Shown here piece after piece: positions 24,812 through 36,460 of a stretch of 64,000 bases of DNA. This DNA comes from Escherichia coli (GTDB lineage Bacteria; Pseudomonadota; Gammaproteobacteria; Enterobacterales; Enterobacteriaceae). The DNA lies in the NCBI RefSeq assembly GCF_001677475.2, contig NZ_CP015229.1; one strand, written 5' to 3'. Each line of letters begins with the position of its first letter. The first letter of the stretch is position 1. Made by a program: the position numbers and the translations under genes. The notes under the pieces were generated by a model that saw only the letters and a program-made list of their open reading frames with translations, did no database searches and was not told the origin of the DNA.

Positions 24812-24818
24812 GCCGATA

Positions 24819-24878
24819 TGATGCGCCAGCATCGCATCCGGCACTGGCTCCCAGGCCACGCCAGATGCGCCATGCTGG
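24819..24878. repeat. REP-like imperfect inverted repeats at the xseA/island junction
   Basis: gatgcgccagcatcgcatccggcac and ccagatgcgccatgctgg are imperfect mutual inverted copies filling the 67-bp gap between convergent xseA and ratA. Confidence 0.3.
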
Positions 24879-34073: not shown

Positions 34074-36269
34074 TTATTTTTTGGTATACAGCACGCGTAA
34101 ACCGTATCCCTGCAAGCCATCTCCCGCTTGTGCGCCATAGATTTGCGACGCTTCGCGGTTAGTGGCCGGAATCACAATGTCCTCATTGGATGTGTTCGCC
34201 TGTGCACCCACTTCACCATTGATGCTCTTGCCGGTAAATTCCCACTTGTAGTCGTACTGCGCCATCTCTTCGTCAGTCAGTTTTTCGACCTGCTGGAAGA
34301 CACCGTCTTTATTGCTGTCACGCCACAAAACAAATCGATAAGTGTTGTTGAGCGGCAGCGGTTCTTTATCTTTACCTATCAGGTTGCTGGGTTTAGCCGC
34401 CCCCACACGATAGATAAATGCATTTAGCCCACCAATTTCTGCCCCGAGGAAAGTGACATCCACATAGTTACTGTCGTCGTAGGGCGCAGCTTTTGCTTTC
34501 CAGCGATAGGTGCCGGGTAAGGTACTGGAGAGGGTGACAGTGCCCTTTTCTTTATCTTGTTTAGCGATAAAAACGCAGGGGTTGTCGGTCGAGCAAGGCT
34601 TGTTGGTTAACGTCACTCGTTTGTCCTGCGCGTCGTAAAGCTGCGGCGTGAGGTTATCTTCCGGCAGCGCATCGCCATTGCGGTCGGTGTTATCGCCAAA
34701 GCTGTCGGTTACATCGAGATCCATCACCACACCATCAACGCCATCTGCCTGAGCGCTGGCTTCGTGGCTGTGGTTGTTCTCTTCTGGCACGTTCGCGATG
34801 TTATTAACAATCAACTCTATTTTACGGTCCTGCTGAACGGTGATTTCCACCACGCCAGAGTTCTGTCGGTTGCCCTTTTCATCTTCCAGCGCCAGACGTA
34901 CTCGCCAGGTATTGAGTTTTTCTTGTTCGGCTTTGTCAGAGCTGTACTGCCAGGCGGGCAGCACCAGGTTCCAGTGGTTATTGTTACCCTCTTTCAGGGT
35001 ATTCTCTTTGATAACCGGCATAACCAGCGTGCGGGCAGCATTGTTTTTCGCCTGCCATGACGCAGCGACAATTTTGTAGTGGTGGTTGATAAGCGCGTTA
35101 ATGGTCCACTTACATTTTTCCAGCCCGACCGCCGCTTCAGGCGTGTCTTTAATGACGCACTCAGGGTGTTCGTTGGTGGCATCCGCTTTTAACCACAGGG
35201 TGACATCAAGCGGATCTTTTTCTTTGTATTCCAGAACAATAAAGTTATTACGCTCAACAAAATCATGACGACTGCCCATCAACGAGTGAGCCGCTTTCAC
35301 TTTATCGCTATCCAATTGATCTTTTAGCGGAACGCCGAACTGATAATTAAGAGTGGCATTAATGCTGACATCGCTGTTATCTCCGGTCCCCGCTTTATAG
35401 TCCGCCCCAACGGTTAGTAATGGCACCGGTTGATAATTCAGTCCAAGTGTTACCGCGTAGGGATCTTTCTCCAAATTATCCGTACCAAAAAGGGCGACTT
35501 CATCGCCGTAATATTGCTCGAAGACAACTTTGCCCCCCAGTTGCGGATAAGAAGGTAACCAGGCTTCGGCACGAATATCCCAGCCGCGCGCAGGGCGTTC
35601 TTCATAAAAGTCGAAATCTTCAGAGTCTTTCCAGTCAGAAAGCGGATGATAATAGTTGCCAGAGAATTTTAAATAATCAGTCCACGCTTCGCCGCCTAAA
35701 CCTAAACGGCGATGTCCTCGGGTAAAATCATAATCATAAAATATATTTCCACCCAATAACCATTCATTAAAATTATGTCTTACCCCAAGACCAATATTCC
35801 CGATTGTACGATCTTCTTTTCGTTGCGCAGAAAATTGACTGAAATAAACAGTGGTTTGATTATCGTACCAGGGAACAAAATAATCGATGGAACTGCCATC
35901 CAGATCGCCGCCCTGGCCAATGGAGAGGTTCGAACGGACCTTACCGTAGGGAGAGAGTGTGTCTTCAATATAAGATTGTGCGGTTGAGGTGATTTGACTT
36001 TGCAGATAGCTTCTGGCCTGAGATTCCAGCGCCTCAGGGGTCAAGTTTTCAAACCCTTGCGTGGCGGAGTTGATGACGTAATCGGCTCCGCGCTCTTTCA
36101 GCGATTTACCCTTGTTGGTTTGTTCATCCTGCTGTGCTGCCTGGCTACCTAAATCAGGTAACGATTCGTTTTGCTTAACATTTATCTCTGGTGCTGCGAA
36201 AGCAGCACCAGAGATAAATGTTAGCATAATACAGCGTTCCCATCGCAGCATGCACTTTCCCTGTGACAA
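34074..36269 (-). CDS. sinH: Intimin/invasin-family inverse autotransporter, SinH-like
   Basis: N-terminal region resembles the intimin/invasin beta-barrel (GNIGLGVRHNF, GGNIFYDYDF, WLPSYPQLGGKVVFEQYYGDEV); likely real start at M7 (36251) with AGGGA 7 nt upstream. Confidence 0.7.
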   Translation of the reverse strand: MSQGKCMLRWERCIMLTFISGAAFAAPEINVKQNESLPDLGSQAAQQDEQTNKGKSLKERGADYVINSATQGFENLTPEALESQARSYLQSQITSTAQSYIEDTLSPYGKVRSNLSIGQGGDLDGSSIDYFVPWYDNQTTVYFSQFSAQRKEDRTIGNIGLGVRHNFNEWLLGGNIFYDYDFTRGHRRLGLGGEAWTDYLKFSGNYYHPLSDWKDSEDFDFYEERPARGWDIRAEAWLPSYPQLGGKVVFEQYYGDEVALFGTDNLEKDPYAVTLGLNYQPVPLLTVGADYKAGTGDNSDVSINATLNYQFGVPLKDQLDSDKVKAAHSLMGSRHDFVERNNFIVLEYKEKDPLDVTLWLKADATNEHPECVIKDTPEAAVGLEKCKWTINALINHHYKIVAASWQAKNNAARTLVMPVIKENTLKEGNNNHWNLVLPAWQYSSDKAEQEKLNTWRVRLALEDEKGNRQNSGVVEITVQQDRKIELIVNNIANVPEENNHSHEASAQADGVDGVVMDLDVTDSFGDNTDRNGDALPEDNLTPQLYDAQDKRVTLTNKPCSTDNPCVFIAKQDKEKGTVTLSSTLPGTYRWKAKAAPYDDSNYVDVTFLGAEIGGLNAFIYRVGAAKPSNLIGKDKEPLPLNNTYRFVLWRDSNKDGVFQQVEKLTDEEMAQYDYKWEFTGKSINGEVGAQANTSNEDIVIPATNREASQIYGAQAGDGLQGYGLRVLYTKK
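36177..36224. repeat. Perfect palindrome (21-bp arms, 6-nt centre cgaaag) inside the sinH signal-peptide codons
   Basis: taacatttatctctggtgctg / cagcaccagagataaatgtta are exact reverse complements; checked base by base. Confidence 0.9.
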
Positions 36270-36460
36270 TGATACAGTCCAAAATAAGCTTTAATATTGT
36301 ATCCCTGATTATTCAGAAAGGCATGTCATAAAGAGTAAATATATTCTTAATTATTTAAATTAGTGATTTCACTCAAATACATTAGTTATTCCACTAATAA
36401 CAGATTGTTTTACCATTCACATATTAAATATAAATGATAAAACAATATATTCACATGATA

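Follow-up and report, generated by a model that had tools for sequence, protein, structure and literature searches.

The sinH-sinI-ratA locus between xseA and yfgJ in an Escherichia coli chromosome: an intact ila allele, a box shared by SinI and Rat proteins, and a hairpin in the first sinH codons

What separates xseA from yfgJ in this Escherichia coli chromosome, and do the proteins encoded there act together? The stretch analysed here, called the window throughout, comprises 64,000 nucleotides of contig NZ_CP015229.1 (assembly GCF_001677475.2). The interval 24812-36460 is the exact space from the xseA stop to the yfgJ stop, and the list of open reading frames (ORFs) gives three on the minus strand there: 24879-32921 (2680 aa), 33042-34019 (325 aa) and 34074-36269 (731 aa from a TTG codon). 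All three lie on the same strand as yfgJ and der. An earlier note, made from the sequence alone, had placed three intact same-strand genes at these positions and had related them to the Salmonella CS54 island and to sinH of extraintestinal pathogenic E. coli (ExPEC); our results bear this out. The locus is almost certainly the E. coli chromosomal ila locus (sinH/iatB - sinI - ratA-like), which in Escherichia corresponds to the sinH-sinI-rat part of CS54. It has been described before, and the window adds one more intact, somewhat divergent allele; what is potentially new may be limited to a box in the N-termini of SinI and Rat proteins and to a hairpin in sinH. The three genes are as follows.

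34074..36251, minus strand: sinH (iatB), an intimin/invasin-type inverse autotransporter, assigned by NF033423, Pfam IAT_beta and barrels in PDB
33042..34019, minus strand: sinI, encoding a barrel-less SinI-family partner of 325 aa with a signal-peptide-like N-terminus, assigned by NF040711
24879..32921, minus strand: ratA-like gene, encoding a giant repeat protein of 2680 aa with a signal peptide, an N-terminal region and nine BIg21 + InvE_AD modules, assigned by NF011844 and Pfam

Each product scored above the NCBIfam cut-off of its family. SinH matched the equivalog NF033423 with 1483.8 bits (cut-off 999; residues 7-731 on model positions 1-730), SinI matched NF040711, SinI family autotransporter-associated protein, with 333.9 bits (cut-off 165; residues 7-322), and the giant protein matched NF011844 'RatA-like protein' / PRK15316 with 5400.2 bits (cut-off 3870; residues 1-2680 on model positions 1-2683). 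Because all three align end to end with full-length models, all three are intact. RefSeq annotates a homologous E. coli stretch with the same three products. Comparison with the Salmonella proteins gave 72.5% identity for SinH and 44% for SinI, each over the full length; the RatA-like protein was 41% identical to Salmonella RatA and 49% identical to the fetched part of RatB. In E. coli the cluster of sinH, sinI and ratA has been named ila and probably derives from CS54 (PMC12928451, PMC12525524). The sinH orthologue iatB was named by Goh et al. 2019, who reported surface display and biofilm formation (PMC6714894).

SinH belongs to the type Ve (inverse) autotransporters and has its barrel N-terminal to the passenger. 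Two of its parts matter for what follows.

35244..36065, minus strand: beta-barrel translocation domain of SinH, residues 69-342 in the 731-aa numbering (Pfam PF11924, PDB barrels)
34077..34385, minus strand: C-terminal domain of SinH, homologous to the SinI C-terminal domain and the most variable part of SinH (blastp, NCBIfam cross-hits)

The barrel matched Pfam PF11924 (IAT_beta) with E = 2.4e-108 and the invasin/intimin barrels in PDB with E = 1.7e-73 (4E1T) and E = 7.1e-65 (4E1S). The N-terminus, MLRWERCIMLTFISGAAFA/APE, looks like a Sec signal peptide. Pfam detected no LysM, Big_1 array or other passenger domain in SinH, and the protein stayed far under the intimin cut-offs of NCBIfam (253 vs 1400). 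The SMS-3-5 orthologue IatB was displayed on the surface as seen by immunofluorescence (PMC6714894), and SinH is very probably a surface adhesin. The type of protein was thus correctly given in the earlier note, but its length of 731 aa is revised here. RefSeq sinH orthologues are annotated with 2178 bp / 725 aa, and an AGGGAA Shine-Dalgarno-like motif lies upstream of the ATG at 36251, not of the TTG at 36269; on these two grounds ATG 36251 (725 aa) is a better sinH start than TTG 36269 (731 aa).

The 2680-aa product had been noted earlier as a repeat protein and called RatA. The repeats were confirmed: nine TSPD..WGHM markers, 268-285 aa apart, define nine modules. The name stood only in part. 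The protein belongs to the RatA-like family, but it scored below the equivalog cut-offs for both Salmonella RatA (NF011843, 1956.5 vs 3700) and Salmonella RatB (NF011842, 2265.1 vs 4079); the name 'ratA' is nominal, and the protein is nearer to RatB than to RatA. The Pfam scan covered residues 1-1200 and 1801-2680 and found four BIg21 (PF05688) and four InvE_AD (PF05689) domains in the first of these parts and three of each in the second. With BIg21 and InvE_AD domains in alternation, the protein is a member of the DUF823/DUF824 repeat adhesins. Apart from the signal peptide it showed no export signal such as a lipobox, and no barrel, domains having been sought in the Pfam-scanned residues. 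The modules are mutually 25-48% identical in amino acids; in the DNA the repeat period is 804-855 bp, with 60-81% nucleotide identity in the best-conserved core. At 25-48% amino acid identity between repeats, the gene carries no intrinsic mis-assembly hazard.

For SinI, nothing significant was found in Pfam, its sequence had no match in PDB, and a Foldseek search of its model against PDB returned nothing at E <= 0.001, the top entries being mostly generic two-domain proteins of the immunoglobulin (Ig)/FnIII type. The AlphaFold2 (AF2) model has two beta-rich domains, with residues 1-44 disordered. Likeness to SinH was confined to SinI 211-325 against SinH 623-725 (36% identity, E = 4e-12, blastp), so that the earlier description of SinI as a paralog of SinH holds for this segment and not for the rest of the protein. 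SinI also matched the ZirU family weakly (E = 3e-7, score 30.8, far below the ZirU cut-off of 100). As a separate observation, the SinI signal peptide (residues 1-22, 33954-34019) is unusually conserved, and Rat signal peptides vary freely; among 34 homologues with identity as low as 40%, A19, G20, Y21 and C22 change rarely or not at all. A lipoprotein reading of this AGYC sequence was set aside, since Tyr at -1 would go against the lipobox rule.

The two barrel-less proteins are linked by their N-termini. A box of about 20 residues lies directly after the signal peptide in 16 SinI and 18 Rat-like proteins, Salmonella RatA and RatB included. Its positions in the window are given below.

33876..33932, minus strand: N-terminal box of SinI, residues 30-48, EDSAWVDSGETNIFQGTIP (comparison across SinI/Rat N-termini, hidden Markov model search)
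32787..32843, minus strand: N-terminal box of the RatA-like protein, residues 27-45 (comparison across SinI/Rat N-termini, hidden Markov model search)

The box has the consensus LK.G.WQ.....TG.I.GT.P, and the window carries the variant E.SAW.....T..F.GT.P. A hidden Markov model (HMM) built from SinI boxes alone and run against 3247 six-frame ORFs matched, beyond SinI itself, only Rat-like N-termini ahead of unrelated ORFs; the Rat-like matches had E = 8e-5 to about 2, and the first unrelated ORF had E = 3.5. The two flavours of the box agree between the SinI and the Rat protein of the same genome in 16 of 16 loci. In the SinI model the box falls within the disordered first 44 residues. These observations fit a common recognition element for one partner, which would most simply be SinH. 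The locus also resembles ZirTSU in its make-up: a barrel protein is encoded together with barrel-less proteins that have signal-peptide-like N-termini and share sequence with the translocator passenger. SinI and Rat-like proteins were proposed as substrates of SinH, by analogy with ZirTSU, by Heinz et al. 2016 (PMC4943183).

The picture that we consider best supported is largely taken over from this literature: a SinH adhesin with putatively dependent SinI and RatA-like proteins. On this view SinH is an adhesin of type Ve at the cell surface. SinI and the RatA-like protein, with signal-peptide-like N-termini and no barrel, would cross the inner membrane by Sec and would then be exported through SinH or docked onto it, as ZirS and ZirU are with ZirT, the shared box after the signal peptide serving as the putative common recognition element. 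As an explanation of the locus as a whole, mechanism included, we consider this the best one and hold it with good confidence; for its central step, that SinI and the RatA-like protein depend on SinH as partners, we put the chance at slightly less than even.

Several points weigh against that dependence. No experiment showing that SinI or the RatA-like protein depends on SinH was found in the literature. The box of the window RatA-like protein is on its own a weak match to the SinI-box HMM (E = 2.3), and linkage of adjacent genes could by itself account for the matching box flavours of SinI and Rat. An AF2 prediction of a SinH-(GGGGS)x8-mature SinI fusion, made with 11 genome-paired sequences, gave a poor model, uninformative as to whether the box becomes ordered next to SinH, with a mean predicted local distance difference test (pLDDT) score of 46 and a predicted template modelling (pTM) score of 0.29, with the box at about 26-37. 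In SinH, the box flavours can be told apart at only two columns, residues 617 and 631. These fall in the C-terminal domain, adjoining sinI, where linkage and co-evolution are not separable.

The alternative that survives best is that the three genes act independently: SinH would be self-sufficient, the RatA-like protein would leave by another route or stay in the periplasm or envelope, and SinI would be a periplasmic helper or chaperone. IatB alone, without the downstream gene, gives surface display and biofilm formation in K-12 (PMC6714894), and the solved barrels of the family are plugged by their own linker, an obstacle to substrate passage that was raised in PMC4943183. The expression of ratA may also be separate, as suggested by two strong hairpins between sinI and ratA and by two reviews, which report co-transcription of sinH with sinI only (PMC12525524, PMC12928451).

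32966..33030, minus strand: two perfect hairpins in the 120-bp sinI-ratA spacer, with a 10-bp stem at 33007-33030 and a 17-bp stem at 32966-33000 (fold search)

These hairpins may serve in transcript termination or processing between sinI and ratA. Independent action nevertheless has to provide some outer-membrane route for a 2680-aa protein in which a signal peptide was the only export signal found and neither barrel nor lipobox was seen; it also has to accommodate an N-terminal box common to SinI and all Rat proteins and a sinH-sinI-rat order kept in five genera. We regard it as rather unlikely. Dependence of SinI and the RatA-like protein on SinH can be extended to a stronger proposal, to which we give no more weight than to independent action: the box would be a dedicated targeting or docking signal of a 'two-partner' branch of type Ve secretion, in which several barrel-less adhesins are exported or anchored by SinH, box flavour and the variable C-terminal domain of SinH co-evolve, and the system is gated post-transcriptionally in Escherichia by the sinH hairpin.

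How the locus is expressed was approached through the 5' end of sinH, where two features stand out.

36252..36460, minus strand: AT-rich yfgJ-sinH spacer, the presumed sinH promoter/leader and silencing target (GC count)
36176..36223, minus strand: perfect stem of 22 bp, closed by a 4-nt loop, in the sinH signal-peptide codons, from 28 nt past the ATG (folding, z = -6.9)

The very AT-rich leader of about 190 bp that had been noted on the yfgJ side was confirmed: GC content is 23.0% for 36270-36460 and 25% for 36252-36460, compared with 51.7% for the window. A consensus scan found no sigma-70 site on the minus strand in this spacer, and promoter and terminator counts were no higher than in shuffled sequence. 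The leader would be an H-NS-type silenced promoter. The hairpin that follows in the coding region is conserved in structure. In nine Escherichia sequences, pairing holds for 97% of cells; compensatory double changes were seen at three pairs, and the remaining changes mostly amount to G.U wobbles in the mRNA. A strong hairpin is present in E. coli, E. whittamii, E. albertii and Escherichia sp. E1V33 and a weak one in Pseudocitrobacter; Salmonella, Superficieibacter and Citrobacter R56 lack it. Its sequence was found in sinH only, in 1735 genomes. The stem is perfect in the window; every complete genome differs from it at one base at least over 60 nt (best 98.3%), and in the aligned alleles the base that differs from the window stem makes a G.U wobble. 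Rfam returned for the locus only a spurious sub-threshold miRNA match, which lies on the hairpin, and no mention of the hairpin was found in the literature searched. The absence of a T-run after it shows that it is not an intrinsic terminator.

LeuO raises the iatB transcript about 15-fold, with no protein detectable (PMC6714894). Taken together with this report, a role of the hairpin as a post-transcriptional brake, added to silencing at the leader and acting, for example, by RNase III cleavage or by hindered translation, is plausible. A duplex of 22 bp is long enough for an RNase III substrate. The covariation is modest, however, with only three pairs and with 2 of 500 shuffles reaching the observed score; codon constraints contribute to the pairing, as the stem lies in coding sequence; and IatB was made from a plasmid clone, so that if the native 5' coding region was kept, the hairpin would be no outright block. 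A regulatory role of the sinH hairpin is possible, and we rate it a little below the dependence of SinI and the RatA-like protein on SinH.

Is the locus a recent arrival in ExPEC lineages? The earlier note had called it an accessory island interrupting the core gene order. Relative to K-12 this holds: K-12 MG1655 has nothing between xseA and yfgJ, which overlap there by 4 bp, and a K-12-like strain shows the same. Composition, the lack of mobility features and synteny across genera point instead to an old resident. The flanking genes in the window are xseA (23435-24811, plus strand), yfgJ (36461-36676, minus strand) and der (36739-38250, minus strand), and the junctions have the following features.

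24403..24811, plus strand: 3' end of xseA, a divergent island-linked haplotype (89%, then 75%, then 54% identity to K-12)
24808..24846, minus strand: repetitive extragenic palindromic (REP) element in the xseA-ratA spacer, overlapping the xseA stop codon and variable between strains (alignment to REP elements of the window)
36461..36753, minus strand: yfgJ and the yfgJ-der spacer, a divergent island-linked haplotype (73% and 52% identity to K-12)

The REP-like element noted earlier on the xseA side is borne out by its alignment with the REP copies at 7171 and 56886 of the window; its sequence on the minus strand is TGCCGGATGCGATGCTGGCGCATCATATCGGCCTACGAAT. It is an indel, missing from N3 and SCU-105. 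Identity to K-12 along xseA falls from about 99% to 89%, 75% and 54% over the last 400 bp and is back at 95-99% in der, and the core around these divergent flanks is 97-100% identical to K-12. The window YfgJ is 66% identical to K-12 YfgJ and 74% identical to Salmonella YfgJ, and the K-12-type XseA tail resembles that of an island-bearing Superficieibacter. The core part of the window was 98-99% identical to nearly all complete E. coli genomes; of these 5426 genomes, 1749 carry sinH, at a single chromosomal place, and 1739 the ratA-like gene. Within the species, sinH is spread over phylogroups B2, D, F and G (Xing et al. 2023, PMC9937491). Diverged flanks together with presence or absence of the island indicate that the polymorphism is old and tied to old flanking haplotypes.

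Insertion of a recent, horizontally acquired pathogenicity island between xseA and yfgJ in ExPEC lineages would account for the absence of the locus from K-12, BL21, O157 and about two thirds of complete E. coli genomes, and horizontal acquisition is what published reviews state (PMC12525524, PMC12928451), against the reading preferred here. It would also be in keeping with very divergent alleles within E. coli (the RatA-like proteins and the SinI proteins of the window and AVS0465 are each about 66-67% identical) and with the mosaic structure of the window ratA compared with other alleles, from which recombination with outside sources is evident. The comparison of composition gave no foreign signature: GC content is 50.8% in the island and 51.7% in the window, and GC at third codon positions (GC3) is 51-56%, like that of the neighbouring core genes. 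In the ORF list the three genes are the only long ORFs of the interval, with no mobility gene (integrase or transposase) there; the window is free of tRNA genes, and the island ends carry no direct repeat. The order xseA-rat-sinI-sinH-yfgJ-der occurs also in E. whittamii, two more Escherichia species, Pseudocitrobacter and Superficieibacter; for E. albertii and Salmonella the yfgJ-sinH-sinI-rat side was seen, the fetched loci stopping before xseA. The Salmonella locus, reached via its SinI, reads rodZ-ispG-hisS-yfgM-bamB-der-yfgJ-sinH-sinI-ratA-ratB. With the position thus shared and the ends of the flanking genes themselves old haplotypes, a recent insertion is unlikely. A locus that was old at this site, was lost in A/B1/K-12-type lineages and later underwent homologous exchange would fit the sequences better than recent insertion does.

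Beside these flanks, a der copy of 91% identity was seen on NZ_CP148383.1 (109-kb record, 78048-79631), which was counted as a plasmid. Elsewhere in the window, Rfam found ryfA (55693-55978), sroE (41450-41541) and the iscRS stability element (63234-63343).

How far does the allele in the window differ from others? The best match among the 5426 complete genomes was 97.3% identical over the locus, 97.0% for ratA and 99.3% for sinH. Within E. coli, identity to the window proteins was 88-99% for SinH, went down to 45% for SinI and to about 52-54%, over the aligned part, for the RatA-like protein. The 5' half of ratA and sinH are 97-99.8% identical, and the 3' half of ratA (25.4-28.6 kb) is a mosaic in which successive 400-bp windows are closest to different strains. 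For loci L006 and L007, SinH identity is 94-100% as far as about residue 600 and 70-80% beyond; these two loci, with SinH differing mainly past that residue, carry different SinI and Rat types. From the variation at the SinH C-terminus and the differing SinI and Rat types, the variable cassette consists of the SinH C-terminal domain, sinI and ratA.

Damaged copies occur in other strains: ratA is split into 254 + 1881 aa in SCPM-O-B-8794 (L006, 13338-19765), shortened to 2157 aa in AZ 190 (L005, 1757-8230) and interrupted by ISEc31 in EcPF15 (NZ_CP054227.1), and sinH is apparently interrupted by an insertion of about 0.8 kb in E69 (L016, about 10001-12958). The remark in the earlier note that the giant gene is often truncated or mis-assembled is thus supported as regards disrupted copies, but the repeats are too diverged for intrinsic mis-assembly. 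In spite of such copies, it is extremely improbable that the long ORFs of the window are an assembly artefact or decaying pseudogenes, as each aligns over its full length with its family model, many finished genomes are collinear with them, and the repeats are too diverged to collapse. As a further observation, short contigs 96-99% identical to the window sinH/sinI/ratA appear in unrelated assemblies (L011, a Collinsella sp. metagenome-assembled genome (L025) and Rhizobium wenxiniae (L021)); these are most likely E. coli contamination.

These results bear on applied and mechanistic work. SinH is among the present vaccine candidates against ExPEC (Xing et al. 2023, PMC9937491), and allele mosaicism in SinH domain 3, in SinI and in the distal RatA modules bears on vaccine coverage. 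According to two reviews, deletion of the cluster attenuates uropathogenic E. coli in mouse urinary tract infection (PMC12525524, PMC12928451). The box offers a direct test of the old proposal that some inverse autotransporters translocate separate substrates, and the conserved hairpin might explain why a 15-fold rise of iatB mRNA was reported with no detectable protein.

Among known systems, the window is closest to the ila/iatB locus of ExPEC (CFT073, UTI89, ST131, SMS-3-5), with which it shares genes, order, strand and site; its allele is distinct in the mosaic 3' half of ratA and the perfect hairpin stem. CS54 of Salmonella (xseA-shdA-ratB-ratA-sinI-sinH-yfgJ) has the same yfgJ-side junction and the same sinH-sinI-rat order, and its Rat proteins have the same BIg21/InvE_AD architecture and N-terminal box as the window RatA-like protein. 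CS54 contains shdA; the fetched Salmonella locus ends inside ratB. The window lacks the full CS54 set of five genes (shdA, ratB, ratA, sinI and sinH), with only three between xseA and yfgJ; it has one rat gene (2680 aa) where CS54 has two (1865 and 2435 aa), and Salmonella sinH, unlike that of the window, has no 5' hairpin. The difference between three genes in E. coli and five in Salmonella has been noted before (PMC12928451). In intimin and invasin the N-terminal barrel is homologous and the passenger C-terminal, as in SinH; SinH differs from them in having co-encoded partner proteins. In this respect it is like ZirTSU (translocator ZirT, exoproteins ZirS and ZirU), an analogy drawn in PMC4943183 and PMC6714894: there too, an inverse autotransporter with a barrel is accompanied by barrel-less Ig-like proteins that share passenger sequence. 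Secretion dependence has been demonstrated for Zir and not for Sin/Rat, and the giant repeat partner of the Sin/Rat locus has no Zir equivalent.

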